A DNA stretch of 64,000 nt, taken from positions 49,352,001-49,416,000 of the forward strand of contig NC_086383.1 of NCBI RefSeq assembly GCF_036588685.1. The letters are read 5' to 3'. Numbering within the stretch: the stretch's first letter is position 1; each line of letters begins with the position of its first letter. The notes below the pieces were generated by a model. The model was not told where the DNA came from and did not search any database. It worked only from the letters and a program-made list of their open reading frames with translations. This document shows, in pieces, positions 7,129 through 61,249 of the stretch. This DNA comes from Mytilus trossulus (lineage: Eukaryota). Both the position numbers and the translations under genes were made by a program.

Positions 7129-8554
7129 ATTTGAAGATAGAAGAACTATAAATATGTGTGAACGTTCTTATTTTATATATATACAAACTAGCTTTTTGGA
7201 TATATTTCAAAACTAAAGACATAAAGTATATCATGCTGATGTTGATCAATAAGAAAATCATTGTACAAATAACAGGTACACAAATTAATTTTTGATTCAT
7301 TTGTACTTGTATAAATGAATTCTCATATAACTTTCTTTGTATGGTCCTCTTTGCGTTTCGCGTTTTAACGCCAAAAAAAAACTACAATAAAACCTATTTT
7401 TAAAGACGACTTCAAGGAAAACAAAACGTGGTTTCTTGAGAAAAAAAGTACCTCTACTACAGGTTCAACCTATATGAAATTATAGAACAGATGGATTTAA
7501 AATTGGTGGTCTTATAATACAGGTTTTTGCTTGATACAGGTAGTCTCTTAACCAGGTTTGACGTTATTTCATTTTGTAACTAAACCGTTATCAAGTCTAA
7601 ATAATAGGATAAAAGCAATATTTGTACATTGTCGGAATCAAATATGATTTTTTTTTTACTTGCTTCAAAACAGGATACCCGTTGGTCGACCCTCTCAGCT
7701 CGTACAAAGATGTTTCTATTTGTTAAGAAACCTATTTGTATTGTCTATTTATACTAGTATGTATGAATATTATATACAATTATGGAATAGACATGGTAGA
7801 GGAACAAGATTTTTTTGCATACAAATGAGCTGAATATTGCAGATTTAATTTACTCTAATTAGATATAAGATGTGGTATGAGTGCCAATGATCCATGTCCC
7901 CATCCAAGTCACAATTTAGCAAAGCAAACCATTATAGGTTAAAGTACGGTCTTCAACACGGAGACATGACTAACCAAGTCAGGAATATGACAGAGAGATT
8001 GACAGTTGTTGTTCATCCGTTGGATGTGTTTTATCATTTGATTTTCAATTTGATGAGATACTTTCCATTTTGAATTTTCCTCGGAGTTCAGCATTTATGT
8101 GATTTTACTTTTTACACCACACAGCAAGCTATAAAGGGTCCCAAAAGTTACAAGTGTAAAACCATTCAAAAGTCTCATCTATTAAAAAAAAACATGAAAC
8201 AAAAAACACACCAACAAACGACAACTTCTGAATGTAAAAAAAATTAATAATATTTGCCTATCCTTCATTTTTATTTAATTATACAAACTTTATATTCATC
8301 AGGCAAACATGATGTGACTAGTATCGAATCTGTAAGTTAAGTTAAAGAAAAAACTAACAGTGTTACTACAATACAAACTTATTTAAAGTCATTTATAAAA
8401 CTACTGCTAGACAAACTCAAAATTTTTAAGGCATTCATCAACCTACTGCATTGAATGTTACGACATAATTACTGAGAATTTCGTGCTTTTGTTAAACATG
8501 ACATAAAATCGAAGGTCACATGATCCGTATGGATTCAACTTTACTAAAACATAC

Positions 8555-8852
8555 CTGTGCAATCTCTGTGTGATGTCTCTCTAAGGAGTTTGTTGTATAT
8601 ATCATCAAAATGTAGCAAATTAAACGTATACTCTGGTTTATTTGAAATATCTATCATCTCCGAATGATCGATAGCTCTTCCAACTGCAACTGTCATGATT
8701 GATCTGATTGGTCGTCTATACGCCGGAAGTCGATTTAAAGTGTTAACATACTCTTCAGCACTATATCGGTCTGATGACAGCCCATCGTAAAGTAGTATGA
8801 TGTGTTGTGATGCTTTGCCTAGCCTAGATCCACTTGTCGTGCTCTGCGCTAT
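8555..8852 (-). CDS. Paralog 1 coding exon 7: VWA domain 1, C-terminal half (IILLYDGLSSD, MTVAVG)
   Basis: 298 nt, CAG acceptor, GTATGT donor; overlaps ORF 8544..8858. Confidence 0.92.
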
Positions 8853-9196
8853 CTGCAAATAATAGGTATATTGTTATAAGCATTGATCTGATTTTCTTAT
8901 TAGCACTTAAGTCCTTTTAACAATGTTTAAAGCTTTTCCTGAACTTCTGCTGCGGCAAAAGTCTAAGTGATTGTTATGTTGCTACTAATGGGTCAATAAA
9001 TTTGTCTTTAGACTTTTTTTTCTCCGAGGGTATCACTACCCTAGTAGGCTGTACTTCCATGTTAGCATGAAAATATGGCCGCTGTTTAATTAAAAATTGT
9101 TGTAATATTTTGAAACTCAGAAAGAGTACAGGACAGCTTAAAATGGGCTACGCAATACTAGATAGTATATACATTATCTTAAAAATATACAAATAC

Positions 9197-9480
9197 CTCA
9201 ACAGCTTTTGACAAAGCCAGTTTAGTGTACGTTGGCGAATGATTTCCATGAATTTGTTTAAGTGCCTCTTTAATGTCCGTCTTCGATGAAAAGTCGTTAA
9301 AATCGAATAAAAGGTGAGCCTGGAATCCATATGTGATGACAGAAAACTGATACTCGTTTTTGCCCATCGGAAGTTTATTTACAAATTTAGATATAAATTC
9401 TACTGTACGATTTATATCATTTTCCTGGCTACTTGAGGTGTCCACAATAAATGTTATATCTGCATGCCCTGGTCTACAGT
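9197..9480 (-). CDS. Paralog 1 coding exon 6: VWA domain 1, N-terminal half (ADITFIVDTSSS MIDAS)
   Basis: 284 nt, CAG acceptor, GTATTT donor; DxSxS motif; overlaps ORF 9179..9445. Confidence 0.92.
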
Positions 9481-10053
9481 CTGCAAAAGTATCAAATCAT
9501 GATCTTGTTAATTGTTGCATTAACACAAAGTTTGACTTGATAAGTGATACATTTATGAACGTTTTTTCCATCAACTATGCTTTACGTACAAAGTGACTTT
9601 ATTCACTTGAATTTCGTCTTGTTCTATGCATTTCTATCTTTGATGGCGAAGGTTAAGTCACAGAAAGTATCACCAATGCATATCAAACTCATAGCAAGTC
9701 ATAATTAATCCACGTTTTAATTTTTATAGTCCCCTTGTGAACTTCTTTCCCAATTTTACACATCTTCTAAGAGTTTATGTGATAGAATTTCGTTGATATA
9801 CATGTGCATTTAATCATAAGCATAGGCATGTTTTTGGGGGTTTTGTATTTTGCCTATTTGAGGTATTAGTATCATTTTTAAAATGTATATTGTAGCACTC
9901 CGTTCATAGATTTTGGAGTAAACTGTTTAGGGTCTTCTTGTTAATTGAAAGTGCCATCTCGAAATGATGTGTGGTCTATTTATTTTATCTTATATATATG
10001 TAAAATGTTATGACTACACCTAAAAGAAATTTTCCTTGAATGTGTCTGCTTAC

Positions 10054-10167
10054 CCTTTTCACATGTTGTTCCGTTAAACCGTTTGGAACAGTCACAAGAA
10101 AAGTCAGCCCATCTATCGTTACAATTTCCTCCGTTTTGACATGGTGCAGCCAAACATTCATTTTTAT
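10054..10167 (-). CDS. Paralog 1 coding exon 5: calcium-binding-type EGF DKNECLAAPCQNGGNCNDRWADFSCDCSKRFNGTTCEK
   Basis: 114-nt phase 1-1 exon with D-x-N-E-C and C-x-D-x4-F-x-C consensus. Confidence 0.92.
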
Positions 10168-11080
10168 CTGAGTGCAGAAAAAGAAGTAATTTATAAAGTT
10201 TATACAGATGGATTAAACAGAAGCAATATAAAAATACGGATAAGTCCTGAATGGTTGTAACATATACACTATCATATATTCTTAAACCGTTAGTTTTAGT
10301 AGTGTATGGATCATGAATAGCCTGGGGAAACCACCGATCTTTGGCAGAAAAAATTGGCAGTCTTTTTTAAATCTGAGAGTTTTTGCAGCTGCATTCAATT
10401 GCTGCTTATTTGATATTTTTACGCATAATTTACAAATATTGCGATTTTGTTTGCAAGCTGATCTTAAACCTAAACGTTTTATATATTTTTCAATGTAAGG
10501 AAACATATTGATGATCAGGTTTATTCAAGGTTACCATTTTGGACAAAAACTGCAAGAAAACATTAATGATTAGAAATTAAAAAAATATAACAATATTATT
10601 CTCCGTTAACAAAAATTCATTATAAGTATATCAAAATTCTACATAGATGGGAGAGCCTTCATGCATGTATGTATCTTACTTGAAAGTAAAAGCCTATAGT
10701 GCGGAGGTAGTGTGATAGACGGTAAAATTAATATTGCTGCTTCTCCGATAAGCACTCGGAATCTAGAAGTAAGACCCAGTCGGCTCAGAGTCAGAATAAT
10801 CTGCTAAGGTCATTAACAAACTTTTATCACCGACTATCACTTTGTGAAAAAAAAATTAAAAACCGTCTCCCCATGTCGGTTACTACCAAGCAGGTTTCGT
10901 ATGCATTTCGCAATAACATGTTCTTGTCCTGAATATGCACATTATTTGTCATTGAATGTTAAACAGCCATGCATCCAACAATCAATTCATCGAATGTTAA
11001 AAAATGCATTTTTCTCAAATCTTGTCATTTTTGCAGCTGTATTCAGGATTTTGTCTCTTAAATAATTGATCTAAACTAAC

Positions 11081-19742: not shown

Positions 19743-20341
19743 TCACTGACGTTTGATAAAAATGTCGTTATCACATTTATAATAGGACGTCATTCCAGCA
19801 AAAGATTCTAAGCTAGTAAAATCATTTTCAGCAACATAATACACTTGACTAGGATCAAACAAGACGCTTACAAAATTATCATACGAGCAATCATGACCAG
19901 CCACAACACCGACGACCTCGATATGTGATTGTTGTAGCAGAGTTACTTCTCTTTTCACATTAGCCAGAACCCGCCAATTTCCATCAGAGACGATAACAAT
20001 AATTTTCCTATTTGAACTTCTTCCCCCATGTGAAGATACAAATCCTTTCTGGCGGAGTTGGTTCAGGGCATAGCTCAAATTGGAAGTCAAACTCCTTTTT
20101 CTGTCTACTTGAAGAGCTGTGGCCACCATTTTATCCGTATTGTTTGACCAAAACAAAGGAAACACCTGGGATATGTTATTTGTGTATGAATACAAACCGA
20201 TATGTGCATCAGCATTATAACGAACTACTTTTTCTATTACACGTCTTATTGCTTCTTGTCTTGATCTGTATCCCTCAGACGTTTGGTTCATTTTTATATC
20301 TTGCAAGATAATTATATCTGTGTCTGTGTGTCGCATACAAT
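19743..20341 (-). CDS. Paralog 2 terminal exon: VWA2
   Basis: 599 nt, CAG acceptor at 20342-20344; ORF 19743..20387. Confidence 0.92.
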
Positions 20342-21043
20342 CTGAAAACAATACTGGACTTAATTTTTGAAAAAAATCTCTTTTCACGTCTATATCTTTT
20401 AGAAGTAAAACAATCTTCTATATTTCTATCGTAAGATAATCGAGAAAACACTGAAAAGAACTATTCGCAACAAATGTCTTGAAACATGTTAAATTGCTTA
20501 AAATTAATTCAAACTATATGCATATAATTTTCATGTAATAGCTTTTATAAATGTTAAAATGTTAAATCGACTAAGACGCCTATTATAAAGCATACAATTA
20601 TACACTTAAACAATCGATTTCTTTCCAGAAAAAGGTACTGTTGCTGTTATCTAGCTGTAAAAAAAACAATGCATTAAAGAAAGATGGAACGAAGGTAGCA
20701 ACAATTCATGCATGATATACTAATTATCTGGCAAAGTAAAACTTTGGTGGGTCTACGTTGTCTTTGACGATATCAAAGCACCTGTTGATTTTTTTGAAGT
20801 TTCAGATTGCAATTAGTTTATGTGCGTCAGTTTAACCAAACATGAGAAGATAACTACATGCAAAACAGTGCTGATTAAAATTCGACAATATCAGTTAAAA
20901 ACCTCTGCCTGGAGAAAACCTTATTTGCAAAACATAATTCAACTGCAATGTACAGACATGTGACATGTTCACACTAAATTTAAAGCTGTTTTAAATCTAA
21001 AGTCTTCATGGGATTAGATTAAATTTTAATTTTTTTTAAATAC

Positions 21044-21341
21044 CTGTGCAATCTTTGTGTGCTGTGTCTTTAAGTAATTTGTTGTATATGTCATCAAAAT
21101 GCAGCAAATCAAATGTAAGCTCTGGTTTATTTGATAGCATGACCATTTCTGAATGATCGACAGATCTTCCAACTGCAACTGTCATAATAGATTTGATTGG
21201 TTGTTGATATACCGGATGTTGATTCAAAGATATAGCATAATTTTCAGCGTCATGTCGATCTGATGACAATCCATCGTAAAGTAGAATAATGTAATGTGAT
21301 GCGTTGGTAAGCCTAGATCCACTAGTCGTGCTCTTTGCTAG
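21044..21341 (-). CDS. Paralog 2 coding exon 7: VWA1 C-half
   Basis: 298 nt; overlaps ORF 21036..21269. Confidence 0.92.
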
Positions 21342-22032
21342 CTAAACATAATAAAATTCATATATATTTATTATCATTGATGTTTGACAGAACATACAGA
21401 TATATTCTGAGACAGTTGATTGCAAGATTTTACAAATTATAACAACTTTTGATTATGTTTTTTGAATATTGTTTATAGTACCTTATAAATCGTTGATACC
21501 CACAAATGGTGTATAAATAGCGAAAAGGTTCAAAAGGTCACCATAAATAACAAGGCTTTGGTTAAGTACACTACATGTAAATGCACTGTTTGACTACATA
21601 CGAATCACTAGTGTCACTTTTCGAAACGGTTGTGTGATTTCATGAATATGGCTGATAAAGAAATAATACGCGATAGGAAATCTGAAGACCATTTAAGAAA
21701 TTGCAATACGACGTAGGTTCAAAATGTAAATAGTTTTCTGTGGCCTCCGTACTGATGTGAAGTATTTTTGAAACATGTACAATTCGTTATTTTGTATTTT
21801 TTTCCTACTAGGCCGATCTAACCAAATGATCGCCTTAAAGGTTATAAAACAACTTGTTTTTTTAGTTCCATTTAAATTTTCCTTTATCAATGTCGACTTT
21901 CACTATCTACAGTGTTCTCATCTGGTTAATTGTTTATTTCGCTTTCCCTCTTGGTCCAATGTTTGCTCATTGACGTTCAACATTTAAAGAATAAATAAGA
22001 TGACACATAAACACTTTAATTGATTCAGATAC

Positions 22033-22316
22033 CTCAACGGCTTTTGACAAGGCAACTTTGGTGTACGTTGGCGAATGAATTCCATGGATTTGTTTCAATG
22101 CATGAAGAATATCTAGTTTCGATGAGAAGTCGTTGAAGTCGAATAAAACCTGTGCTGTAAACCCGTATGTGATAACAGAAAATTGATAGTCATTCGGTCC
22201 CATCGGAAGTTTGTTCACAAATTTAGAAATGAATTCTACTGTACGATTAATGTCGGTTTCCTGGCTACTTGAACTGTCGACAACAAATGTTATATCTGCA
22301 TGTCCTGGTCTACAGT
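22033..22316 (-). CDS. Paralog 2 coding exon 6: VWA1 N-half (VVDSSSS MIDAS)
   Basis: 284 nt; overlaps ORF 21967..22350. Confidence 0.92.
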
Positions 22317-22998
22317 CTGTAAAGGAGTTTATTCTAATGTATCTATTCATATCTGGGGTATGAAAATTTCATTCATAAAAAAGGAGGAAGACGAAAGAGT
22401 TTTTCTTGGGAGAGGTTGTTATTATCACCTGTTGCTTAGTCGGCATTTGTTTTGTTTTGTACACATTTATCATCAAGATATCATGCAATGACGCTTGGGT
22501 CTTGATATCTCATTGGGGTTTACCAGTCTTTTTCAGATATGAGATATTGTAAGATTACAGCACGATGTGCATTGCAAACTATAAATGTATAACACTGCGT
22601 TATGATTGCGTTTATCAATGTAATTGCGTATTGACCTCCTTTCCCCTGCACTGACAACTTTACCTCACTTAAAAACAAAGACAAACTAATTATTAACATT
22701 GTGTACTTTTCCATATGATTGTGAAATCCTTTAATTAATATATATATTCAAAGCTCTACCATATTTAAATGTGCAAATTGCTTTCTAGTACTTGAATATA
22801 CAGACATTCCAGCGATGTCAACGATACCCTTATTGACAAAGATGCAATAGACCCAATTACTTCTGACAAAGTAAAGTCGTAGATTGCTCTTATAAATTTG
22901 ACAATATATTTGCAATAATTTATTATCTGTGCTAGAGTCTTTTTATTTATGTATATAGAATTGCAATTCCTCAATTTTTCAGTTATATTTCAGCTTAC

Positions 22999-33169: not shown

Positions 33170-33662
33170 CTTTTGCATCTAAAAACAATTCCAAATAAAA
33201 TACGAACACTGTACAATGGTTCTTTTATTTTATTTTAAACAAGTTAGAGACAGAACATTTTCAAGCAGTTAATTTGTAAAAGTGGCTATCAGTTGATTTT
33301 TCTGCTTTTACTTTGAGTTGGCTGTATCAGCAATCCTTTGAAAATATGTATTTTTAAATACGTTTGGATGCATCTAATAACAACTCCTAATAAAATATGA
33401 ACATTGTACATTCTCCAATGATATTTTGTTTATTTCAGAATGTTTAAGACAGAATTGTTTTTTATTAGGGCAGTTAATTTGTAAAAGTGGCTATCAGTTG
33501 ATTTTTCTGGTTTTACTTTGAGTTGGCTGTATTAGAAATTCTTTGAAAATATGTATTTTTAAAATACGTTTGAATGCATCTCATAACAACTCCTAATAAA
33601 ATATGAACACTGTAATTCTCCAATGATTTTTTGTTTATTGCAAACAAGTTAAAGACAAATTT
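33170..33662. repeat. ~205-bp tandem repeat; the third unit resumes at 36607-36730 after the transposon
   Basis: GCAGTTAATTTGTAAAAGTGGCTATCAGTT at ~33265, ~33470 and ~36624. Confidence 0.85.
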
Positions 33663-36606
33663 CACGGTGGGTATGGTTGTCCTGCGAGAGAACGTACTGT
33701 GCTGGTGATTCGGTCCTGACGGGTGCTGGTGATCAATGAAAAAATGTAAACAAAGACGAAAATGATGATTTTTGACGTTTTCACTCTTAAAAAATGGAAG
33801 AAAACAGTTGAGATTTTTCAATTTCGTTTCTTATGGGTTCATATATAAACCATTCAAAAAATAACCTGTTTCAGTAAGCTTAACACAAAAATGCTCATTT
33901 TCAGAAAATCTCGAACTGAAAAAATAAAACAAAAATGCTCATAGAGTCCGCTTTCTATACCGCAATCCACACGACAAAACAATTTTGTGAAAAAACATTC
34001 TAATTTATTAAAGTTTAGCATTTTCTCAATTTATTCGTGTCCTGATACTGTGCTGGTGGGTCCTGTCATTGTGCTGGTGGGTCCTGATACGGTGCTGGTG
34101 ATTTTGGATAAGAAGTTGGTCATATTTGAAACAAATGTTACAAAATCAATAAAATTAGCCAGATAATTGTTGCCAACAGGATGTATGACTCCTATTTTAG
34201 CTCTTGTGCATCCATTTGGCTGTTTAATCGGTGTTTTCAAATGATCTGAACTTGTATTACATAATAACATAAAAGGGCAACATCTTTCGTCCAATATCAG
34301 ATAACAATATATAGTATCTAAAATAAGTTAAAAATTCCACAATACTATATAATTCATTTTATGTGTCAATTTGTTCGAAAAAAGTCGAAAAGAAGAGACT
34401 TTTTTTAATGTCATGATTATATGTCGCATTTATTTCAGATGACATGGACTACTCACCCTGATGACCCTGCTTCCTTTCATAACTTTATCCGTATACATAT
34501 ATTAATAGATAAACAAAAGGCTGCATGCAACACGTATTTTTGTATTTAAAATGATTCGTTGTAATGAGAATATTTGTAGTGAATGGAAACTGTGAGGGTC
34601 ACAATCTTAAATTGCTTATAAATGTTGCTGGAACCAGTTTCGTTATCTGATCTGAATTTTCTGAAATGTGGAAGGTAGATAGACATTTTGATATTTTTAC
34701 TCGGTAATGAACCATTGTGTTGATCCCATGCTAAACATAACAAAAATCTCTGTACAAAGGTCTGTGAATTTTCTACAAAAATAGTGATTTTATTTTCACT
34801 AAATTCTCTTTTTCTACTAAATACAATAATGAACTATAATAATGCTTTGCAAGAAGTTTCCCCTTGATATATGTACAAAATTATATCTCTATTATTCATT
34901 GTCTGTGCTGTTTTGATACAATTGCAGTTTGCACATTCCGGAATTGACAGGCCACAGGAGGGGTCATAAAACGTACACGAAAAGATAAAATATTGATATA
35001 ATTATTTAATTTGCATCTTTGAACCCCCAACCCGGCTTGTTTTTTTAGGAGCCTGGAGTGTCTAAAAATGGTCGATTACAGACAGCCGAGTACGCATTTT
35101 ACTTTCCAGGCGTGTTATTGTTGATTGTTAAAGTCCTGAAAACGGATAGATGGAAACAAAAATGTTTGATATAAATGGCTTTAGATTCATTTTTTTAAAA
35201 TATAAATTAAGGCTACATTTTAATATAATAATTATATGAATTCACAATATAAAAAAATGCAGAAAAAAAATGAATGAAGTGAAATATCTTAGTAAGGAGT
35301 CATTACTACAGAGATGGTGTGTTTGACACACAAAACTCAAAAGCTTAGTGATATTACCAATATTAAAATAAAAGTGTATTTTTTTTTGGAAAAAAAAAAG
35401 TTTGTTTCCAGGTTTTGGTGAAAAAAATAATTTTGGACCCTGAGAAAAAAAAATTGTTTGTTTCACCCTCAGCTGCCACTATATGTAATGCTAAAATTGA
35501 AAGAAAAAAATGTTTTCGGTTTGTCGCTAAAAAAATAGATTGTTCTTTGCCGAAGGCGAAAAAAAAAGTTTGCACAGAAAAAAAAAACCATACCCCCCCC
35601 CCCAGAAAATCAAATGGTTGCTGCCTTACTACTAGCTATAAGATACATTTTTCTTTTACAATTTTCTTTCACTGTAACCTCGCTCTAACTTATCCCCATC
35701 CCTCCCCCCACCCAAAATAAACACCACACCAAACAAACAAACCCGCAATACTAAAAAGTATTGTCATTCTTATAGTCAGCACTCAATTGTTCACAAACAA
35801 ATGTGTTTTAAGCTGCTAAAGACATGATTCAAACGCTCAGAAACACCTTTGTTCTATATTTTTGCTCTCCATTTTTAATCAAAACCTTTTACATTTTTAT
35901 TTTATGGGTTATTGTTGAAGGTCGTATGATGACGTATGGTTGTTAACACATACTTCCTTTGGTTTCTTATGGAAATTTGTCCATTGACAACAAACATACC
36001 ACATCATCTACTTTATATAAGTATTGTATAAATTACAACGTATTTTGGTGATCTTGCAAAATGATCGTTATCCCGAAAATTGTAAACATATTTTCTTATC
36101 TCAAAAGGGGGCAAGAAGGGTTCCATTAACATGCCAATAAATAAGATTACAGTTAGTTTAAAAACAAAATTAAAAAATAGGGGTATTTTTTTCTCTCATA
36201 ATAACAATAAACAGATTCACAACAATGTCAATTCAACAGCTAATATGTCAATAACAGTACAGCATCAATGATCTTGAATATATGCCACTTTTAACTAAAA
36301 TATAAAAGCACAGAACCAGGACATAGGAGCACAGAACCAGGACCGTTTTTCTTATCACCAGCACAGCGTCAGGACAAATCCGTTTAACGAACTTGCACGA
36401 CTTTTGCAATATAATATTGTTGTAATATACTTTGCATGGTATTTATAACACATCAGAAAAAAATTAAGCAACAAAACAGTTGTTTTATTGCCGTTCTGAT
36501 ACAATGTAAACAAACCCACCAGCACAGAATCAGGACCCACCAGCACCCGTCAGGACCAAATCACCAGCACAGTACGTTCTCTCGCAGGACAACCATACCC
36601 ACCGTG
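33663..36606. mobile_element. Non-autonomous DNA transposon with CACGGTG termini (Transib/Chapaev-like), 2944 bp
   Basis: 69-bp TIRs (33663-33731 and 36538-36606, one mismatch); AATTT direct repeat on both flanks; subterminal 21-bp repeats; splits a local 205-bp tandem repeat unit. Confidence 0.85.
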
Positions 36607-39006
36607 AATTTGTTTTGGTTATGGCAGTTAATTTGTAAAAGTGGCTATCAGTTCATTTTTCCGGTTTTTCTTTGAGTTGGCTGTAATAGCAATCCTTTGA
36701 AAATATGTAATGTAAAATACGTTTGAATTTTTAATAATTTCATAAAACTGCGAACAATGAAATTCCGGGTTTTTTTTTTTTTAATTTAAAAATTGAACCT
36801 AGGTAAAATACCTGTTTATCAAATTAATCAATTAATAAATATCGTTCATGATCATTTAAGAAAATTTCAAAACAAGTACGATTTTCCACACATAATTCAG
36901 ATGATGTACTCATGGCCAATGCGTGATACTAAGATCAGATTTGTATTTATCATGTACTGAACTTAAAATATATCCCAGTGAATACAATCATTATGTGATT
37001 CAAGGAGGATACATCATGTTTATTTTCCATTAAGCTTTTCGAATAGAATCAAGTACAAAGTATGATATATAAGGCGATGTTTTATCTCCTTAATGCATAA
37101 AATTATTGAATTATTGACAAATCGAAAGAGATGCGTCACTCTTTTTTTAAGCATGTTTTATATCTTCAAATAAAAAAGTTTTATACATAATAACAAAGTA
37201 ACAGTTCGACTAAAAAGCATTGTTTAACTTTGTATATATATCAAAATCTGACGGAAACTAATTAAAGCAAATGTTTATCAAAATGATGACGTCAAATATC
37301 AATTGCCAATTGTCACCAATTGTTCTCCGTGTTTTCCCACTATTCATGTCAATATGATAAATTGTGTAGTTTTGTCTGATGCCCTATCGTACAACTGTCC
37401 GTTCGGTACATTCTTACGTAACTGTCCAAATTATAAGTCAAGAGTATGTAATTAGTTACGACCAGTTGTTGTCATTCCTTTCTGTTTATTATATTCTCGT
37501 TTAAAACGTTTAACATTTTGTCGTATCGGGACCTTTTACTCCTTACTGTCCTGATGGGTTTTGTGCATTGTTGAAGATATGAGTAGCAAGAACGTTTAAT
37601 CATTATAGGTGAAATCGTCAGTCTACCCCTAACTTGAGTTATTGCTCTTCCATGACTACACTTCACCAAAGCCAAGGGTTTTTGTCTATATTCATTTTCC
37701 ATTAACTGAGAGAAATTTTGAATAGCAATTTTTATAGGCATTTTTTTTTTTTACAAATAAAACAGGATACATCAGTTGATTAAAAATATACCTTATTGTT
37801 GTTGAAGATGTATGTTTACACGTTTCCATACTTCCTATATTTTTTTGGTATAAGAAATTACAGCAAACAAAGATTGTATAAACTATACTAGACACAGAGT
37901 AAGAAGTAAAACGAAAAGAGAAATATCAAGAACATGAGATTTACAAATACTCCACACGAGAAAAAATGACACAGAAATTAACAATTAGAGGTTACCGTAC
38001 GGCCTTCAACAATGAGCAAAGCTCATACCGCATAGTCAGCTATAAAAGTCCTCGAAATGACATTGTAAAACTATGTAAACGAGAAAACTAAAACGGACTT
38101 ATTTAAGTAGTCTTATGTAGACGAGACGCGCGTCTGGCGTACTTAATTATAATCCTGGTACATTTGATAACTATAAAGTACAAAAAATGAACGAAAAAAC
38201 AAATGTGTAACAAAGAAACAAACGACAACCACTTAATTACTCAATACTCTTCAACTTCGTACTTTATTTGGCCTTTTTAAATTTTTTGGAATCGAGCGTC
38301 ACTGATGAGACTTTTGTAGACGAAACGCGCGTCTGGCGTATATACAATAAATTTAGTCCTGGTATCTATGAAGAGTTTATTTACAGGCTTCTTAATTTTC
38401 TACGGGAATCTGATTTTGTATGAAAATTCATTGTTTTGTTCATTAACTATGAAATTAGTTATGGTTACCAAAGACAATGTGTGGTTCGGATAGGCCATAT
38501 TTCAATGTTTGTTCTTCCAAAAACTATTGTTTGATTTCAAACACATACGAATTTTATTGAGAATTCTTAAGAACTATACACAAGACAACATGGATAAGCA
38601 CTCTCACACATGTATTTCAAAATAATGCAACCTTGCTCCCCTTGTCTAATTTATTAATCATTACACCTCTAAGTGAAAATTTATGACACCATGGGCAGTC
38701 TGACAAAAGAATGGATGCATTAAAATTAGCATTCAAAATTGGATATCATTATATGTGTATATCTATAATAAAAGTAAATTTCTGATTAAAAACAGCATCT
38801 AAATGGATGAAAAATTATCAAAAACATGTAGATACATGAGAAGGGTGTTGCATTACACCTAATGAATAACTTACACTTATCTCAAATGACCACCTACCGT
38901 ATTATTAATTACGCGTGTAACTTAATGCCACATGCTATATTATTTTAATATCAAGATTATATAGGGTATACATTTATATGTCTAAATGGAAAACAAGTAT
39001 TGAAAC

Positions 39007-40020
39007 ATGGAACGTCCTTCAATTCGTGTCTTTGTGAGATGCGTTCTATTCATTTGTGTATTTTTGTCGACCGGAATTGTGTCTTTTTCAGCCACCAAAA
39101 CAAGTTCTAATATTGAAAATGAACCACAAAAAGAACCGCAATCTGTATCCAGTAACATTAACATGGATGCTGACTTTTCGGAATCCAGAACTTCAAATGT
39201 GATTGAGCTTGCGTCAGTGGAAAATCAAACAGGATCACAAGAATTAGATGCTCTTTTTATGAATGATCCTTGTGCTAATTTTTCAACTTGCTCATTTATT
39301 GCTCAGACAAAAACAAAATTCTGTAAATGTGATGAAGACTGTATAGACTTTAATGATTGCTGTAACGGGGTAATATTTCCAAATGCCACACATGTTGTTA
39401 ATGACGCTTATTTGAGATACGAATGTCTACAAAATAATAGACACTTGCTGTTTGATGGTGTTTACGTAAGTACGAAATGTCCGAAGACCGCCAACTCAGC
39501 AGATAGTTCTTTGTGTGACGTCAGCAGTTTGCTAGAAGTTGGACCATGGGTTGCAGACGAACAAGGAAGACTCTACAAAAACCGACACTGCGCCATTTGC
39601 AATGGCGTATCAGTATTGACATTCCTAGATGTCAAGATTACAAACGTCGAAAGTGAAATTCTTAGAGTAAAATTTGAAAATTTAACAGCACATGAGAAAT
39701 TGTTTGAATTGTACTATGGTAAATATACTAACGTAAAATATGTAATACCACCGGAAGTGCAACAAAGATACTGTTTACCTACTAAAATTAGTGCGAAGGC
39801 ATCCTCTCAATGCCAACAATATGGGACCAGTCCAGTAGAAGCCGATATGGTAACCTACAAAAATATGTATTGTGTTCCTACTGATTACACCTATTCGTTT
39901 TGTTTAGGACCAGGAATTGATTTTACTCGCGATTATGGTTATGGTTATGGTTTGGATTTGATGCTTCCACTCACAGTCTTGTTTTCATTTAAGGAATCAA
40001 AGGATGCTTGCCAAACTCAG
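39007..40020 (+). CDS. 7TM receptor exon 1: signal peptide, SMB-like domain (CKCDEDCIDFNDCC), YKNRHCAICNG and YKNMYC motifs
   Basis: 340-aa ORF with a CAG|GTAAAC donor at 40020/40021. Confidence 0.9.
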
Positions 40021-40910
40021 GTAAACTGATATATTTAATAGTGTATTTTTGGGGATATCTATTTTGCGCCTATCTTTTACCGTCTTTATATTCACCAATA
40101 GTAAATTCATCGAAAGTTGATATTTATCTATGTTGCCATCTAGATCTTAATTCTTGTACTTTCCTGTACATCTCGAATTGTTCGGACATTTAGATTATGA
40201 AAATGTTTGCACAGTTTCAAATTATCGTATGTATACTTTGGTACAACACGTGAGTCATAATAGGATTAATACATTTCAATTTTGTCGATTAGTCAAGACA
40301 AACGTAGCATATATAAGACAAAATACATTTTTTTTAATTTTATTGTTATGTTTCTTCATGCTATAAGATTTACTAGGTGCAATAGTATGTTTACCCTGAA
40401 ATTTTCATTTATGTGAGTGAATAATATAAAAATTGCATTTTCTGGATGATAATATCACTCCTAACAATACTGCTATACATATTCTTAAATCATTCATTAT
40501 TGGGGTTTTTACAGGGAATATGTGGTGGTGATTGTTTCAAATTATGACTGTAAATTAAAAATTGTTCACATTGGTAATGTTTTAATTACCATAAAATACA
40601 TTGTTAAACATGTTATAATGATTGGTTTAAATCTAAGATGATTTTTTTGGTATTTGTTTTCCATTAGCTTGAAAGGTAAAAGAATAAGTAACACCACATG
40701 ATAAATTTATGATTATATATTTTTGTATGGATTTATTGCCGACTGAAAGCAGTCTTGGTAACTATTTTCCATTACCAGAAGTCAACCATTGCAAAATAGT
40801 AGTTAGTTTACATCTTATAAGTGAAAAAACCCTATTGTTTTTATATAGCTTTCTTTAGTTTACATTGTCATTTTCTTATTCTAAGCATTTACACAAATAT
40901 TTCATTATAG

Positions 40911-41234
40911 ATCAAAGGGTTATGTCAATCTGAAGAAACCTACACCAATGCAAGAGTAGAAATCCAATTTTCTATCATAGCAAATGACACCGTAGAACCA
41001 GACGCTTTTAGACAGATTGCTATCGGTATGGTATTATCGACCGTAGTTCCAAACATAACATACCTGGATTACATATATGTACCTAAGATTAGCCAAAATG
41101 TATCGACACTTCCCCTGGTCAAGGTCATTTTGTTTATAAAGTCGGAGTTGACTCTAGAAGAGTACCGAACTTTCCCGCAGACACTGCAAAATTTGAAATG
41201 GAAAATGATCATGATTTCGGAAAAATCAGGCAAG
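40911..41234 (+). CDS. 7TM receptor exon 2: ectodomain (IKGLCQSEETY...ISEKSGK)
   Basis: TAG acceptor, AAG|GTAAAC donor, 108 codons, in frame with ORF 41028..41246. Confidence 0.8.
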
Positions 41235-42728
41235 GTAAACATATAGTCAATAATATAAGAAGACACACAAATAAAAGTGGGGTTTGGGAATAATAATATC
41301 TAGAAAGGACACAAAAAAACATGGGGGAAAATACCTAAAACAAAAACAACGCATATAATGAAAAACTAAAAACTGCGGTATAATTGCATATGAAACAACT
41401 CTCCATTAGAAATAAATATAACGTACAAATTTACACGTTTACAACTTCAGAAACGTTTGTTATTTTAAGTATTTAGAACTACCATGTGTTTCCATTTATA
41501 AGACACGATGTGAAAACATCTTCATACCAAATCCAAAACGTTAAGTATTCTTTTATGTTTAACTTTGTATCAAGGTCTGGATGGGGTGTGGGATGTTTAA
41601 TTTTCTCTATTTACAAGGTTTTTTTATATGAATAACGCTCATTCTTGTAAAATCCTCATGTGAATGATTTTACTTTAAAAACAATCTGGGCATTATTTTC
41701 TATTTTGTTTGCCAAATCCAGACCCTTTTGTGTTGACTCTTGTTTTCTTTTGTTGGTATTTTTGTTTTTCATTGTTTGTTTCCTATTGCATTCACTATAT
41801 AGCTAGCCTTAATTGCAAAATACATGTATTCCAAAGGAAATGTATAATACAAAAATAGATTATGTTGCTATTTCATTCGTTCTTAAAGGAACACTTCATG
41901 TTAATGATATAAAATGACAACATTTGAAATTATAAAAAGTCATATCTATGGTACTTCATTATTTTTTTACTTCTAATTGTTTCGTTTTTGTTGATTTTTA
42001 TTTGAAAGTCTTTAAAATATGATAGTTTAACATATTAGTTATTCAGTTTCTTAGTACACCAAAACAAGCACATATTAAGTAATGCTGTATTTTAGCTTTT
42101 AACCGACTTACCTTCAATGCAAAAGACTTCGACTTTTGTAGGACATTTGAAAAGTACCATATACCCTTACTTTTGTTCTTTTCTCAGTCTAAAATCGGAA
42201 AAGATGATCACTCCAAAATACCAAATGCCCCAATAATAATTAATCTTAAACCGTCATATACAGTACTTCATTGTAACATTCTAGATTCAGTTAGTAGAAA
42301 CTAGTTGTCCTTTAATGTAACAATGATCGTACTTTTAGTTTTCCATTAATATCCTATTATAGTACTGGTGTCTGGTGACTAAAAATTAATTGTTAACTTT
42401 GAAGTTGATGTCCTAAGTCAGGTATTGTAATAATAATCTTTGGTTGTTGTCATAAATGATTTTTGTTAATAGTTTGTAGCTTAAATAAGGTAAACCGAAA
42501 ATCGTTCATTGTAAACTAATTGGTATAGTTCCAATCACACCGCATCTACTTCTTTTAATAAGTACTTTTAAATTAATATGAATACCTACCAGAAAAATAA
42601 ACATCTAGTATATGTACGTTTAGATTTCCGTGTGTATGTTAAAGATAAAAACAAGTTTCCTAAAACATTGATATTTTTAAAACTCACGTTTTTTCTACTT
42701 ATTTTGTCTGTTTTAATTCTTTTTGTAG

Positions 42729-43943
42729 GTTATTGAAATGATCACCGATGTGAATGTGCAACAGAGTAGTGTCTTCAATCATTTATATGAAATCTACGAC
42801 ACAGACGTTAGCTCAATCATACAAGAGTACAGTTTACAGTCCCACATATTCTTGGAAAACTTTCCTTGTACAAATATAAGTATCGATAGCTTTCTTAATG
42901 ATAGTAGACATCCACATATTCTGAGTATAAATACCGTTTCATGTGAAGATGAACAGAATGAAATGCAACAAAATCACGCACCAAATCTCGTAAACGAGAA
43001 TGATGAGTATATTACTTATATTACCTATACCGGAACATGTTTGTCTGTCATAAGCCTAATCTGTTCTGTCGTTGTGTGCAGGCGTTCTGGTCTGTCGACT
43101 TCTATTCCAGGTTCAAACTTAGAAAATCTTTCAGTTGCCCTTATTCTAGCTAATCTGTTATTCCTGACTGGCATAGGAGCTAAAAAGTATCAAAATGTTT
43201 GCACAGTGATAGGCATTGTCTTACATTATCTGTGGTTGCTCGTTTTCTCCTTTATGTCTATATCAGTAATTTACTTGGTCTATGACGTCAGGAGAATAAG
43301 CATTAGCACAACAACAAACAAAAGGTGCTGTGTTTGTGCTAAGCACTTTCTAACTATGGCCGGTTTGTTGTTACCATTCGTTTTCGTTGTTCCTGCAATG
43401 GTTTTAGAATTTATTTTCCCGACCACACAATTTTCGCCTAACTATGGCGGAGCGATCTGTTTTCCAACAGCTTACCCTGCCAATTTACTCTTTGTCTCTG
43501 GCCCTTTAATGATTTCTGTCGGTTTAAACATAATCTGTATTACAATTTTAACTATATATTTCAATATTAAAGAAGGAGAGGCAAGTAAGATAAGAGAAGG
43601 AAATTACAGTCAACAAATTGGTATTTTTTTACGTTTGAGTGTAATTTCGGGACTATTTTGGATAACGGGCACCTTGAGTTCAGTTCTTCAAAGTGAGGTT
43701 TTAGATTACATCTTTGTTGTGACTTGTAGTCTACAAGGGTTTCTCATTGCTGTAGCTAATCTTACTACAAAACGTGTATTCAGAAACAAAAACAAGTCAT
43801 CATTCAGGACATCAACTCGAACATTAAGTCGATCTAGTAGAATTCTAACTAGAAAACCCACAGGTTATCCCCGCAAAACACTTGAAAAAAGGAGGCTAAG
43901 TCAAAATTCCTCCAACACTCTTGTTGTTGCCAGTTTGTCCTAG
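42729..43943 (+). CDS. 7TM receptor exon 3: stalk, all seven TM helices and a Ser/Thr/Arg-rich C-tail
   Basis: 401-aa ORF with class-B motifs: ITYTGTCLSVISL, NLSVAL, CTVIGIVLHYLWL, PNYGGAICF, SGLFW, SLQGFLI. Confidence 0.93.
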   Translation, partial: VIEMITDVNVQQSSVFNHLYEIYDTDVSSIIQEYSLQSHIFLENFPCTNISIDSFLNDSRHPHILSINTVSCEDEQNEMQQNHAPNLVNENDEYITYITYTGTCLSVISLICSVVVCRRSGLSTSIPGSNLENLSVALILANLLFLTGIGAKKYQNVCTVIGIVLHYLWLLVFSFMSISVIYLVYDVRRISISTTTNKRCCVCAKHFLTMAGLLLPFVFVVPAMVLEFIFPTTQFSPNYGGAICFPTAYPANLLFVSGPLMISVGLNIICITILTIYFNIKEGEASKIREGNYSQQIGIFLRLSVISGLFWITGTLSSVLQSEVLDYIFVVTCSLQGFLIAVANLTTKRVFRNKNKSSFRTSTRTLSRSSRILTRKPTGYPRKTLEKRRLSQNSSNTLVVASLS

Positions 43944-54324: not shown

Positions 54325-55947
54325 GTAAGACTATTTTTTATGAACTATATGGGTAGAAAAGACACGCACATGTTGTAAAAATGATACATTTCATAATTAT
54401 ATGTATCTCTTTGAAACCTTTTGTATTTTTAAGTTTGATCAAATCTCTGAATATTTTTTTTTTGTATGTTATTTCGTGAATATTTATGATTTATTCCATC
54501 TTGATGCGACCTTTACAAGTTTTTTTTTATAGCTGAATTAGATTTTGAATAATACGGCATATTCACCACGCTCAAAACGTCGCGCGCTTTTACGTGTATA
54601 ATTATGGTAAAATCGTTTGATGCATAGCTGTTTTTGGTAAATAATTGTCATTACATACATAATGTCCTGTCTCGGAATATTTTTTCTGTAAAAATTTAGT
54701 TAAATTGACGTTGGCCTAAGAGAATCTCAATCAAATCACATATTTACCTCACCAAACGATAGTAATTGGAAAAGTACTACAGTACTTAAAACATATACAT
54801 TATGATGACGGCCAACAAACTATTAGTTTTAAGAATATAAAGTAAAAGATTTAAAAAAATATATAAACAAAAGGAAAAGAAACGACTGACACAACTCTGC
54901 ATCAGAGTTTACATGTTAATGACGTTTTACAAAAAGGGTTAAAGTTATTTTATGTCATGACATGGCTATGTTTAATCTCCACTTAAAAATGATCATTTAT
55001 GATTTTCAAAAAGTAGTTGTTACATGTATCAACCATAACCGATTATCAAAAAATACTTTTTTTCAATCATTTGCGATAATTAAAAAGTTATCGACTGTTT
55101 TAGTTAATAAGTGTTTCCCTTGAACTTAGTAATTCATTTCTTCTTGAGTATTTGATCTAAATACATTTCTTCAGTCTGTAGCTTTTTCTTATTTTTCGCT
55201 GTATATTGCTAATGATAATGTTTGTCAAACATTTGTTGAACACTGTAAAAATCTCCATGAATTAGATTTATTTAAGAATTGAATTCTCTTTTTTGTAAAT
55301 TTATTGGGGTGTAAAAGCATTGACCGAAGTACAGTGGAGATCACTTCTAACCTCTCATTAAATCTGTCAGGAGAACTGTTCCAGAACAGTACGTAGAACT
55401 GTCAGCCTGACAACTTTTAGTCAGTTCTAGGTTAGAACTGTTCTAGCTAGAACTGATTTGGTCAGTTCTACCTAGAACTGATCCTGACAGTTCTACCCTA
55501 GAACAGTTTTAGACAGTTCTAGCTAGAACTGACCAAATATTTAGAACAGTTCTACCTAGAACTGATCCTGACAGTTCTAGCTAGAACTGACCAAATATTT
55601 AGAACAGTTCTACGGTTAGAATTGATTTCTAATTTTACGGCTAGAATTGATTTTTAAAAATTCTACGGTCAGAATTGATTTATAAATTCTACGGCTAAAA
55701 TTAAATTATAAATTCTACGGGTAAAATTGATTTAAAATCCTACGGCTAGAGTTGATTTATAAGTTTTAAGAACTCTTTGCCTTAATTATATAAAGGCTTG
55801 GGTAAAAAAACGATTTAAATTATGTAGAGTTTTGCTATTTTGCGAGTCGGTTTTATTTCAGATTTATAATCGGCAAGAGAACATGTTGAACCTGTTAACC
55901 CCGTCATATTCTGCATGTATGTGCCTGTTCCAAGTCAGGAGCATGTA

Positions 55948-56221
55948 AGGCCTCAACCATTTGATTTCATTGGGGGTCTATGGATTATTTTGGAAAAAAA
56001 AGTTTGTTTCCTGTTTTCGGAGATTTTTTTTTTTCAACCCTGAGAACACAAATTGTTTGTTTCACCCTCAGATTCTACTATATGTAATGCTACAATTGAA
56101 AGAAAAAAATTGTTGTCAACTTGTCGCCCAAAATATGTTTCTCCGAAGGCGAAGAAAAAAGTTTGTCCAGAAAAAAACATCCATAGCCCCCGCCCCTAGA
56201 AAATCTAATGGTTGCTGCCTC
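55948..56221. mobile_element. MITE with AGGCAGCAACCATTTGATTTTC-type TIR (PIF/Harbinger-like); other copies at 35375-35626 and 59966-60218
   Basis: Three mutually alignable copies with inverted termini and A/T-run-rich interiors. Confidence 0.7.
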
Positions 56222-57640
56222 ATTCAGTGATTTGTTGATGTGTAGGCCGTTAGTTATATCATCTGAATCGCTTTACATTGTCTTATCGTGCCTTTTATCG
56301 CTGACTATGCGGTATGGGCTTTGCTCATTGTTGAAGGCAGTACGGTGACCTAAAGTTGTTAATGTCTGTGTCATTTTGGTCTTTTGTGGATAGTGGTTTC
56401 ATTGACAATCATACCACATTCTCTTTTTTATTTACATAAATAATTTGTTTTTCTTTCACTTTTTGTACATAAATTAGGCCGTTAGTATTGGGGGAGGGAA
56501 GGGGGGAGGCATTATTATTTGAATTGTTTTACATTTGTTATTCCGGGAATCAGGATGGTTCGTTATCATATAACAAAATTATCGGACCTCATTAACCAAT
56601 ATAATATCTGTTTACGAGTAGTTTTCATACCTCGGACGACCTTTTTAACAAAAATCTTTTGACCGCATCAATCTAAACTGCCATTATTTGCCCCTGGACC
56701 CCTCCACTTGATCCTCCAATGAACATGTTCTTGTTTTATTCAAAATTTTGAATCATCACAAATATCAGTAGTTTTTATACTTCAGACTGAGTCGTGTAAA
56801 AAAATCTTTTGACTGCATTAACCAAAACTTACCATATTTGCTTTTTATTATGTAAATCTATATAGCTGCACAGCAATTCAGTTATAATTTTAGTTCGAGA
56901 GGGACTGTAGTATATAAATAACTGCAATATTGGAAATCAATGACCACAAATTTTTTTTCGCATTAATTGAGGGTGCCAGCATTTACTATTTTTATTCAAA
57001 ATATAGCATCAGAATCAAATATCAGTAGTTTTCATACCTCTGACTAACTCATGTAACAATTTTTTTTGTCTGTATCAATCAAAACTGACCATATTTGAAA
57101 GCATCAACCAAAACTGACCATATTTGACCACATCAACTAAAACTGACCATATTTGCTCTTTTTTATTCAACTCTTATAGTCACATAGTAAATCTGTAATA
57201 TTTTTATGTAAGGATGGAGTGTATAATCATTATAATACAGATGATCTATATTATTGGGTTATTGCATGAATATTGGGGAATATTGTTCCGAGAAGAATTT
57301 TATATTGCGCATGCTTATATTTTTTATACATGTATCAGGATGGATTGTTCAATATAAAGGAAAGCAACATTGGAAAACAAAATTATGCTCGCATCAGTTT
57401 ATAGTGCCAGCATGTCCTCTTCTTAATCAAAATTTTGAATCCTAAACTAATTTCAGTATTTTTAATATCTCAGACTGACTCATGGATATAACAAAATTAT
57501 TCGTCCACATCAACCAAAACCATGAAAACTGACCATATTTGACCGCATCAACCAAAACTGACCATATGTGACAGCATCAACCAAAACTGACCATATATAC
57601 ACTTTATAATGTAAATCTTAATATCAGTAATATATATATA

Positions 57641-59230
57641 TGTTACAGTAAATAGGTGAAATTAGGAATTACATGTAATTACTGAACGTTTCAGTAAATA
57701 CCTGTAATTACTAGCCAATTTAGTAATTACATGTATTTACTAGTTGTTTCAGTGATTACTGGTAATCACTGATTTTTTTGGTCATTTTTACAGCTATTTA
57801 CTAACTTGATGTTTTGTTTTAAAATTAAAAACATAATTGAAGATACCAAATAAGAAAGTGAAGGAATAGGGACTTTAAGGGAGCTTATTTAAGGATGTAG
57901 GAATATAAGGCACATCAAAAGTGCATACTCTTTAGTGTTTGTAAATTAAAACTGGAAAATGGTTGTTTTATAGGTCTTGTAACTCTGTAAATATATGCAT
58001 GCAAGACAATGATAGCTATCTCAAATTGATTTTCATAATTTGGTTAAACTAAAATCTCTATCATGCACTGTGGTTTAGAACTTTAAAATAACTTTCTCCA
58101 AATATCCTGGATTTTTACCAAACATGAATAGAAGCAAAATTTTTATGATCATAAGTTAATATCAAAAAGTAAAGTTTGTAAAAAGAATCCTTTTTTTTTC
58201 GTATTACTTATAAATGGAGTTTTTTTCCCGGTTAACATTTCATACACTATGCAGTTAAAGTTTTTAAAACATAAGGTTTTATAAACCATCCTGGATTTTT
58301 ACCCAATTTTGACAGAAGCTTCTTACAGTTCTAGTCAAAAGATAGTATCTAGAGGAAATTTTAATATTATTTCCTCATTTTTGTTGAGCCTGCAATTAAC
58401 AGCAAAAGTAGGCTATTTGTTCTGTAAAACCCTTACAACTTTAATAGCTTAATACATCGATAACCCATCTCCAGCTAGAGGTTGAATTGAAGGTCACATG
58501 AATACGTATTCAAAGATCTCCAAATATTCACTCGCAAGTGCACAACTCATCAACCTTGTTTCTCAGCTATTTTAACAAAATATAACCAGATTGGCTGCTA
58601 ATAGTGAATTGTAATTTCACTATATCATTTTTATTAATGATTTAACAACAAAAAGAATATTTTTATTTTTTTTATATCTCGAAGCTTATGCACATAACAG
58701 TTCACTCCAGTTCTTAACCTACATAACGTTATCTTATCTGTATCAGGTAGTAAGTCTAAATATTCTTAAAATTCAAAGTTTTCTTTAAAAAATTAAAACA
58801 TAATTCTTTAGGAGAATTTTCCATTTCTTATTTCCATGTCTGCTGAAATTGGTCAACATTATCTGTATAATGCTCAACTTGAACCATTTTGGATTAAAAC
58901 TAAAGTTACTCGGATTTAACCAAATATTTGAAAGTCCATATTTATTCAAGATATTTTTTTTATAGAAATCAACCATTTAAGAATTACTGTACTGTACTAA
59001 CTGATCTTTTAGTTAGTATAACCATAACTTTTGATCACCTGACCATAATACAACATTGTTTTAGCAGTCAGTAAATAGGTGTAAAAAATCATTTTAATAT
59101 TAGTAATTACTGGTAATAACTGGGACGTTTCAGGAATTACTTGTATTAACTAAGTGCATCGGGGATTACCTGTAATTCCTGAATTTTAGTAATTACATGT
59201 AATTCCTAATTTCACCTATTTACTGTAACA
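57641..59230. mobile_element. Nested TIR element (TGTTACAGTAAATAGGTGAAATTAGGAATTACATGTAATTACT) inserted in a (TA)n tract
   Basis: ~43-bp perfect inverted termini, subterminal GTAATTAC repeats, TA flanks. Confidence 0.82.
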
Positions 59231-59622: not shown

Positions 59623-61249
59623 ACACTTATCATGCAAATATATATATGGCCTCATTGTAAACCAATAATATTTCTATGTCAGGACGGATTGTATGATAAA
59701 AATGACACCAACTTTGGAACACAATACACCTATATTGTTAATCCTGGCTGACCCGGCCTCTTGAACTTTTGAAGCATACATGTACAACAATCACTTAAAT
59801 TTCATTGTGGCGTCAGATATTTTGCTTTATGATGTCAAATTTTTACGGAAACCTGTGTGATATCCAGTAATGGCAAACAAATAGCGATAAGGTGTATTTA
59901 TACCATATCTAAAATTTAGAACGCCGTTATTTCCTCTCTGTATCCATAATAATGAACCGTCACTAAGGCAGCAACCATTTGATTTTCTATGGGGGCTATG
60001 GTTTTTTTTTTCTAAGCAAACTTTTTTTTTCGCCTGTGGCGAAAAACAATCTATTTATTGGCAACAAGATGAAAAAAAAAAATTCTTTCAATTTTAGCAT
60101 TACATATAGTGGCAGCTAAGGGTGAAACAAACAATTTTTTTTCTCAGGGTCAAAAACAAATAATTTTTTTCTCCAAAAACTGGAAACAAACTTTTTTTCC
60201 ATAAAAAAACATAGCCCTTAGTTTTTTTACGTTATAATACAACACTTTTTTTCATATCTCATTATTCATCCACTGTACAATTTTCGTATGAACATTTGTC
60301 AAAACAGAATCTTAAATGAATGTAAATCCAAGGCAAACAAGATAAATTACGATTAAAATTCCATGAATTAAATGCAGAGTTATATTTATATAGAGACTGT
60401 TAAAAACGGGGAACGAAGGAACGTAAACAATGATGTTTCCTATGCAATCTTATAAAAATATTTCTCCGATGAGTTGGATAACCTCCTATTCACTTCGATA
60501 TTTGTACATGTAACGTTTGATCAGTAAAAAATATAGAAAATCTCCTATTATATAGCAAAGTATTTGGAAGTAATTTATTTCTTCTAAATTCTAAAGTGCC
60601 CTTACTTCAGTGACGTCATTTAGAACTGTTCTACAGTCCTGACTGATTAAGTCAGTTCTGCTGACAGTTCTACGGTTATAACTGATTGGACAGTTCTACC
60701 TAGAACTGATTTAGACAGTTCTACCCTAGAACTGATCCTGACAGTTCTACCTAGAACTGATTTAGTCAGTTCTACCTAGAACTGATTCTGACAGTTCTAC
60801 TTAGAACAGTTCTAGGGTAGAACTGTTCTAGGTAGAACTGTTCTAGGACAGGTTAGAACAGTTCTATGACAGTTCTCCTGACAGTTCTAATGAGAGGTTA
60901 GAAGTGATCTCCACTGTACATTTTGTATGAAGCGCGGAAGCGCTTCATACTAAAAATGTGCGCACGGTCAACGCTTTTACAACCTTTAAAGTTACAAAAA
61001 AAAGCATTCAATACTTATAATTACATTTTTACCTATAGGATCATGAAAACACGCCTTTTATCAAGTTTTTATTTCATTTACCTGTGCACTTCATTGTGGG
61101 ACCTCGTGTCATAATGAATGAAAAGTTGCATTGTGTAATACAATTGATTAAGGAATAGCACGAGATTGCTAGTTAGCCAATCAGAATAACGTATTATAAT
61201 GAAACATACATCTAATGTAATTATTAAACGATTAAATTTCATGTTTCAG

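Follow-up and report, generated by a model that had tools for sequence, protein, structure and literature searches.

A probable non-autonomous, high-copy transposon of the CMCT clade with CAC...GTG termini in Mytilus trossulus

Transposases of the CMCT (CACTA/Mirage/Chapaev/Transib) clade are of the DDE type and carry C(2)C and H(3-4)H motifs, and in classical Chapaev elements a Chapa zinc finger accompanies the Chapaev transposase. Chapaev, EnSpm and Transib elements are all characterized by CAC...GTG termini (PMC4079192, PMC12730594, PMC1131882). Target site duplications (TSDs) of 3-4 bp are given for Chapaev, with a TWA TSD between A and T in Chapaev3 (PMC4079192, PMC3014272), EnSpm elements can have CAC..GTG ends with 3-bp TSDs (PMC12730594), and CMC (CACTA/Mirage/Chapaev) elements overall have TSDs of 2-4 bp (preprint 10.64898/2026.08.26.747230). 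A 5-bp TSD has been described as unique to Transib, in which the duplicated bases are GC-rich and a nonamer-like AA is conserved in 21 families (PMC1131882); HzTransib's terminal inverted repeats (TIRs) show little or no nonamer similarity (PMC4840297), and Transib-related families with 3-bp and TA TSDs have been reported (preprint 10.64898/2026.08.26.747230). Among RAG-like (RAGL, RAG1L-RAG2L) transposons, the TIRs of protostome members share a 17-base consensus that reads AAA at positions 8-10, and the TSDs are 5 bp long (PMC7204232); in RAGL-A and RAGL-B the TR2 is A-rich and the TSDs are GC-rich (PMC10629977). Here we describe an element at positions 33663-36606 of a 64,000-nucleotide stretch of Mytilus trossulus DNA (assembly GCF_036588685.1, contig NC_086383.1, positions 49,352,001 to 49,416,000 of the forward strand; hereafter the window, to which all coordinates refer) that is very probably a real, high-copy, non-autonomous transposon of the CMCT clade. 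It is not filed under one superfamily, each of which has a defining feature that the element lacks or does not clearly show.

The element spans 2944 bp and is bounded by TIRs of 69 bp (33663-33731 on the plus strand and 36538-36606 on the minus strand) that are identical at 68 of 69 positions and each begin with CACGGTG. The terminal 20-mer occurred twice in the window and never in 100 shuffles. Both ends are flanked by AATTT (33658-33662 and 36607-36611, plus strand), so that 5 of 5 flank positions matched for an assumed 5-bp duplication (chance probability of 0.0024 at the local composition), compared with 3/4 for 4 bp, 1/3 for 3 bp and 0/2 for 2 bp. The insertion interrupts the third unit of a host 205-bp tandem repeat, the left portion of which lies at 33174-33662 and the rest of the broken unit at 36607-36728, both on the plus strand. 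An initial annotation of this DNA, made from the letters alone, had reported 69-bp TIRs with CACGGTG ends and AATTT flanks and had taken the split repeat unit as evidence of insertion; this description was confirmed here, with TIRs identical at 68/69 positions, a 5/5 flank match and a broken third unit.

A second full copy, L001, was the one further locus returned by a scan of metagenome contigs. It has the same CAC...GTG termini within unrelated flanks and is 96.2% identical to the window copy over 1754 columns and 94.0% identical over 954. Record 9 of sequencing run X19 also has its boundary at the first base of the element, with 125 foreign bases followed by a match that starts exactly at 33663. 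A version of the termini longer by one base (T-CAC...GTG-A, with a 3-bp TSD) fits the empty site described below equally well, and was tentatively set aside because L001 has A before CAC and because X19 record 9 starts at 33663.

The length of the target duplication was read from an empty site. One contig in each of runs X1 and X2 (2 of the 4 runs examined) joins 33657 directly to 36607, the shorter side covering 41 and 46 letters. This joint skips 2949 bases, that is 2944 + 5, the five letters fitting either side; because the skipped length equals the element plus one AATTT, the net duplication at the window site, which rests on this joint, is 5 bp. A 4-bp duplication followed by slippage of one base within the run of T or of A would yield the same result. 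The flanks of L001 match at 3/3 positions (AAA) for a 3-bp duplication, and at only 2/4 for 4 bp and 2/5 for 5 bp, a 3-bp match between unpaired flanks having a chance probability of about 0.027. L001 is probably a collapsed consensus, with flanks that do not belong together, because at 32 of 33 sites it has the base found in the majority of reads and because its flanks are only 31 and 91 bases long; the 33 sites are those left from 40 listed of 591 after setting aside 5 in the flanks and 2 in a nested repeat.

Flank composition was scored at seven outward ends: two from the window copy, two from L001, one loose end from X19 (a consensus of 2 contigs with an agreement of 0.67, among the 24 loose ends listed of 1292) and two inferred from the codons of open reading frames (ORFs) that cross a terminus, P0019 and P0027. 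G or C made up 4 of the 33 certain letters, and the first two positions were A/T in 14 of 14 letters, hence at all seven ends (chance 0.006 at 69% AT). Position 5 was C at 3 of the 7 ends, against A/T at 7/7 for position 1, a difference that was not significant (Fisher p = 0.096); the composition of position 5 leans to a 3-4-bp target, two of the seven ends being codon-inferred.

The element belongs to a repeated family. Among the 24 sequencing runs listed, 20, from 13 studies, contained 41-53% of its words, and three were labelled 'mollusc metagenome'; four of the 24 were compared in detail with 33500-36770, and the 16 other runs that contain its words are given no weight as evidence of habitat. 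In the raw reads of X24 (1934 Mb), the median depth was 492 over 26 bins of the element, against 0 in the two flank bins farthest from it, which corresponds, as an order of magnitude only, to 127-509 copies at an assumed genome size of 0.5-2 Gb. A mollusc-type genome probably contains hundreds of such copies. Two ORFs from ENA and Logan, P0019 (on a 5.5-kb contig) and P0020, cross related ends; because they keep an identical or near-identical reading frame through the TIR while their interiors are only 42-51% identical, these termini are common to diverged sister families. Searches of viral contigs gave 0 copies with three patterns of 20-30 nt and 0 with one spurious element ORF, and a 14-mer scan of the same contigs gave 120 matches, none of which extended (the best agreed at 12 of the next 26 bases). 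One match among genome contigs, L122 (1312-2655), proved to be a chance TIR 19-mer in a GC-rich bacterial gene of a Planctomycetota metagenome-assembled genome and is unrelated. A description of the family was not found in the literature searched, which took in supplements (12 of 33 files of PMC10294476 and 1 of 2 of PMC4079192), and the family may already be catalogued, Repbase and Dfam lying outside that search.

As far as the tests reach, the element is non-autonomous. In the 12 read-through frames of the window copy and L001, Pfam searches returned no match above the curated cut-off and sub-threshold ones only, in line with the initial annotation, which had seen no transposase ORF. Protein-set searches covered 2 of the 6 frames of L001. 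For one frame, large protein sets gave 0 matches among 4157 candidates; for the other, there were 8 matches, all of them unnamed ORFs of 66-145 aa on other copies of the element, and no transposase. At neither the Pfam nor the protein level did these searches of the interior yield a remnant of a transposase. The longest open frames were close to chance expectation, with 98 aa in L001 (reached in 17% of shuffles) and 117 aa in the window copy (3%), the latter overlapping the nested repeat. Rfam returned 0 matches. A frame of 54 aa with the word WTPH, similar in appearance to an N-terminal motif of RAG1 or Chapa, gave no candidate homologue, and this is weak evidence.

The interior (33732-36537) is non-coding, has about 31% GC and, leaving aside the nested repeat, is 94-96% identical to that of L001. 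A second structural feature of the ends is a 21-bp motif. It occurs at positions 32-69 of both TIRs, the left TIR holding two motif cores, and in a left subterminal array of three copies at 34039-34101 on the plus strand. On the opposite strand it is found at 36302-36322, 36323-36343 and 36355-36375, which form a right subterminal array (36302-36375) with two degenerate copies, and once more at 36516-36536, immediately inside the right TIR. These positions agree to within a few bases with those first annotated. In the window copy and in L001 alike, the 600 bases at the left end hold 5 motifs and the 600 at the right end hold 6, each oriented inward from the nearer end, and the copies in and next to the TIRs are asymmetric, with three at the right end and two at the left. 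The subterminal repeats of En/Spm are cis sites bound by TnpA (PMC2613891), and by analogy the arrays described here most likely serve as protein-binding cis sites too.

The assignment to the CMCT clade draws on the CAC...GTG ends, on the structure behind them and on a target duplication within the short range (2-5 bp) of that clade, 5 bp by the empty site and an apparent 3 bp in L001. We propose that an autonomous relative elsewhere would supply a RAG1-fold DDE transposase that cuts at the CAC ends, that this transposase or a partner protein would grip the 21-bp arrays of the two ends in the way that TnpA holds the subterminal repeats of En/Spm, and that insertion would proceed by staggered strand transfer into A/T-rich DNA. 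Several points weigh against the assignment. No transposase was found, so that the clade was read from termini and structure, and TSD and TIR features are labile and should not override transposase homology (preprint 10.64898/2026.08.26.747230). The joint at the empty site bears the label 'between: not known', and the contig that carries it may be a paralogous tandem unit. The two pairs of flanks disagree, with 5 bp in the window and 3 bp (AAA) in L001. Finally, the copy number was derived from a Hi-C library, possibly of another species, with an assumed genome size.

The initial annotation had pointed to the likeness of CACGGTG to a recombination signal heptamer, and had taken CAC...GTG ends with a 5-bp TSD as defining Transib/ProtoRAG. 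The likeness to the heptamer does not discriminate, because Chapaev, EnSpm and Transib all have CAC...GTG ends. Of its classification, a non-autonomous cut-and-paste element with CAC...GTG ends is supported, as is the net duplication of 5 bp at this site; the RAG-like part is not supported, and Transib proper is possible and unproven.

Among the candidate partners, the one that survives best, at slightly under an even chance, is a Chapaev- or EnSpm-type element that makes 2-4-bp duplications in A/T-rich DNA, the 5 bp of the window then reflecting a one-base slip from a 4-bp target or an atypical integration. The A/T letters at the first two flank positions of all seven ends agree with such a partner, and the C at position 5 of three of them fits a 3-4-bp target better, although that test was not significant and two ends were codon-inferred. 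The L001 flanks match at 3 bp only, which points the same way, although this match probably comes from a collapsed consensus with unpaired flanks. The sole duplication checked against an empty site is 5 bp, longer than the 3-4 bp given for Chapaev and the 2-4 bp given for CMC elements. The subterminal arrays at both ends are CACTA-like, and in a survey of 39 mollusc genomes CMC types were present in all of them, versus 1 Transib ORF among 14,275 DDE elements (PMC10294476).

Within this group, the element resembles Chapaev in its invariant CAC...GTG termini, its A/T-rich insertion sites and the presence of CMC types across molluscs (PMC4079192, PMC4411706), and differs from it in the net 5 bp compared with a 3-4-bp TSD. 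Termini were compared with those of Chapaev3. Chapaev3 itself does not fit: neither the window copy nor L001 has TWA on both sides, as the signature A-TWA-T implies, and the termini differ at 5-7 of 11 positions. For the 4-bp TSD of classical Chapaev, the window flanks match at 3/4 positions, so that one extra base is needed, and the L001 flanks at 2/4; the flank composition is compatible. With EnSpm/CACTA elements the element shares CAC...GTG ends, and in both cases a short motif forms asymmetric arrays close to the two ends (PMC2613891, PMC12730594). It differs in that its end is not CACTA, that the TSD there is 3 bp (2-4 bp in CMC) and that no remnant of a Tnp2-type ORF was found. For a 2-3-bp TSD of the EnSpm/CACTA kind, the L001 flanks match at 3/3 positions (chance 0.027 if unpaired), and those of the window at 0/2 and 1/3, with a net 5 bp.

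A non-autonomous Transib, moved by a Transib transposase through a nick-hairpin cut and 5-bp staggered insertion, is tentatively retained as the next candidate, and is somewhat unlikely. The net 5-bp duplication at the window site speaks for it, and so do the termini: the first 11 bases show 2-3 mismatches to four printed Transib ends, versus 5-7 to three Chapaev3 ends, and the end of the element matches one Transib terminus at 8 of 9 bases. Transib-N1_SP, TransibN1_AG and TransibN2_AG resemble the element in their CAC start, the G-rich first nine bases, the 5-bp duplication (at one verified site here) and their non-coding nature. HzTransib is taken to start with the same seven bases as the element. 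The targets argue against Transib, which strongly favours GC-rich sites, whereas only 4 of 33 flank letters here are G or C. The nonamer AA (positions 5-6) was found at 0 of 6 spacers, the best match being 3/9; a missing nonamer does not exclude Transib and weighs little against it, because the TIRs of HzTransib likewise have little or no nonamer similarity. Under the Repbase rule, non-autonomous members have at most 1 mismatch in the first 11 bases (PMC4455052), and 0 of the 4 Transib ends compared, from 3 families, satisfy it, with 2-3 mismatches each. Transib is in addition nearly absent from mollusc ORF surveys, and no transposase was found. Compared with the non-autonomous Transib elements of PMC1131882, the element lies in an A/T-rich target, lacks a nonamer-like A tract at a spacing of 12 or 23, and has longer TIRs, of 69 bp, with 21-bp subterminal arrays, subterminal repeats being unmentioned in the main text of that paper. 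The initial annotation had named family-wide duplications of 2-4 bp as a result that would speak against Transib; since Transib-related families with 3-bp and TA TSDs have been reported, a family-wide 3-bp result alone would not exclude Transib, and that argument is weakened.

A putatively undescribed CMCT lineage that combines Transib and CMC traits, with 5-bp duplications, A/T-rich targets and CACTA-like subterminal arrays, is in our view decidedly doubtful. Under this reading the window site needs no additional mutation, A/T flanks and arrays are accounted for together, and TSD length is labile within Transib-related lineages. It has, however, one verified site, and both L001 (3 bp) and the composition of position 5 lean against 5 bp.

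An unrelated DDE superfamily, with ends that are CAC by chance and a 4-5-bp duplication in A/T-rich DNA, is very unlikely. No transposase links the element to CMCT and the A/T-rich targets agree with such an origin, whereas the CAC...GTG ends and the 8/9 match to a Transib terminus point to CMCT. Sola1 might be a candidate of this kind.

A non-autonomous derivative of a RAG1L-RAG2L (ProtoRAG-like) transposon is extremely improbable: the element does share the CAC first bases, a 5-bp duplication and occurrence in a mollusc with protostome RAGL (PMC7204232) and with RAGL-A/ProtoRAG (PMC10629977), and RAGL elements including non-autonomous ones are known from bivalves (PMC7204232), but the protostome consensus is matched at only 7 of 17 positions with GGT instead of AAA at positions 8-10, the bases after the heptamer are G/T-rich so that there is no A-rich TR2, no nonamer lies at spacers of 11-13 or 22-24 and no spacer asymmetry is seen, all seven ends are in A/T-rich DNA so that AATTT has the length and not the GC-rich composition of a RAGL target, no RAG1L or RAG2L remnant was detected by Pfam in the 12 frames, RAGL elements are reported in few copies versus hundreds in this family, and the RAGL heptamer matches in four passages of the PMC7204232 supplement are internal and not terminal. 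On the features compared, then, the RAG-like assignment of the initial annotation is largely refuted by the 7/17 consensus match, the lack of an A-rich TR2 and of a nonamer (which that annotation, too, had not seen at 12 or 23 spacing) and the 4/33 G/C in the flanks, and the ends would place the element only in the wider clan that includes the RAG ancestor.

The comparison with L001 also bears on the age of the window copy. The single mismatch between the two TIRs is present in L001 too, and both TIRs of the window copy are identical to those of L001 at 69 of 69 positions. The mismatch is a fixed asymmetry of the family, and TIR symmetry says little on age because this sole mismatch is common to both copies. 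Of 2665 bases aligned between the window copy and L001, 50 differ. The divergence of the window copy from the family majority is about 2%, and given this and the nested repeat that it carries, it is not of very recent origin. Near-identical TIRs, which the initial annotation had read as a sign of recent activity, are therefore no evidence that the copy was inserted very recently. Part of the difference from L001 could lie between species or subfamilies. The TIRs themselves show 0 differences from L001 against 2.6 expected (p = 0.075), a weak hint that the sub-lineage continued moving after the interior diverged.

The nested repeat (35379-35628) is a dispersed sequence of about 250 bp, rich in A/T tracts, that has two further copies in the window (84.6% identity to 59964-60209 and 79.8% to 55985-56220), the three being 80-85% identical. 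It is not in L001, which has about 350 other bases at this site, and it is a replacement and not a clean insertion. A fragment of a second dispersed repeat, at 35911-36018, has six other matches in the window (at 13125, 14871, 33011, 50815, 51843 and 56327; 70-86% identity). Because this fragment is found in both the window copy and L001, it is now family cargo, and the family has captured host repeat DNA. Sequencing depth in X24 ranged from 28 to 1063 along the element, and at 34325-34327 the sequences of 687 X24 reads, together with contigs from X1, X2 and X19, leave or enter that of the window. The range of depth and the 687 reads that depart at 34327 indicate that the family comprises several internal variants, many members having a segment that is missing from the window copy and L001. 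A longer variant with this segment may be closer to the autonomous parent.

Non-autonomous transposons with CAC ends were already known, and this family is one more, which can serve in annotating repeats or as a presence/absence marker. With hundreds of copies, it would suggest an autonomous partner whose activity does not lie far in the past. RAG, RAGL and Transib have in common a GC-rich 5-bp target, a trait linked to target bending. Were the duplication 5 bp in A/T-rich DNA throughout the family, it would offer a natural comparison for the target-bending mechanism of RAG, RAGL and Transib. We regard as unlikely the broader claim that an undescribed CMCT transposase, with a Transib/RAG-like 5-bp stagger, A/T targets and CACTA-like arrays, mobilizes the family, or that it is a high-copy mollusc Transib family. 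If either were true, it would provide a natural example of 5-bp integration separated from the distortion of a GC-rich target that RAG, ProtoRAG and HzTransib are believed to require.

The window as a whole has about 32% GC and contains exons with VWA, secretin-type seven-transmembrane and PAN domains (4 of the 6 ORFs scanned had a Pfam match). A tandem pair of paralogous genes, with several VWA exons, lies on the minus strand at 6016-10366 and 19743-22368, an EGF-like exon following the first. On the plus strand, 2.4 kb to the right of the element, exons of a secretin/adhesion-type G protein-coupled receptor are found at 39004-43943, with a cysteine-rich N-terminal exon. A 61-bp tandem repeat is present at 3485-3659 (2.9 copies, 95% matches); a stretch of its unit may resemble a tRNA A-box. 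Two related arrays with units of 25-26 bp and an internal palindromic core are located at 55424-55762 and 60663-60872, with 29-bp arrays at 57074-57770 between them, and the two outer arrays are possibly the ends of another repeat element.

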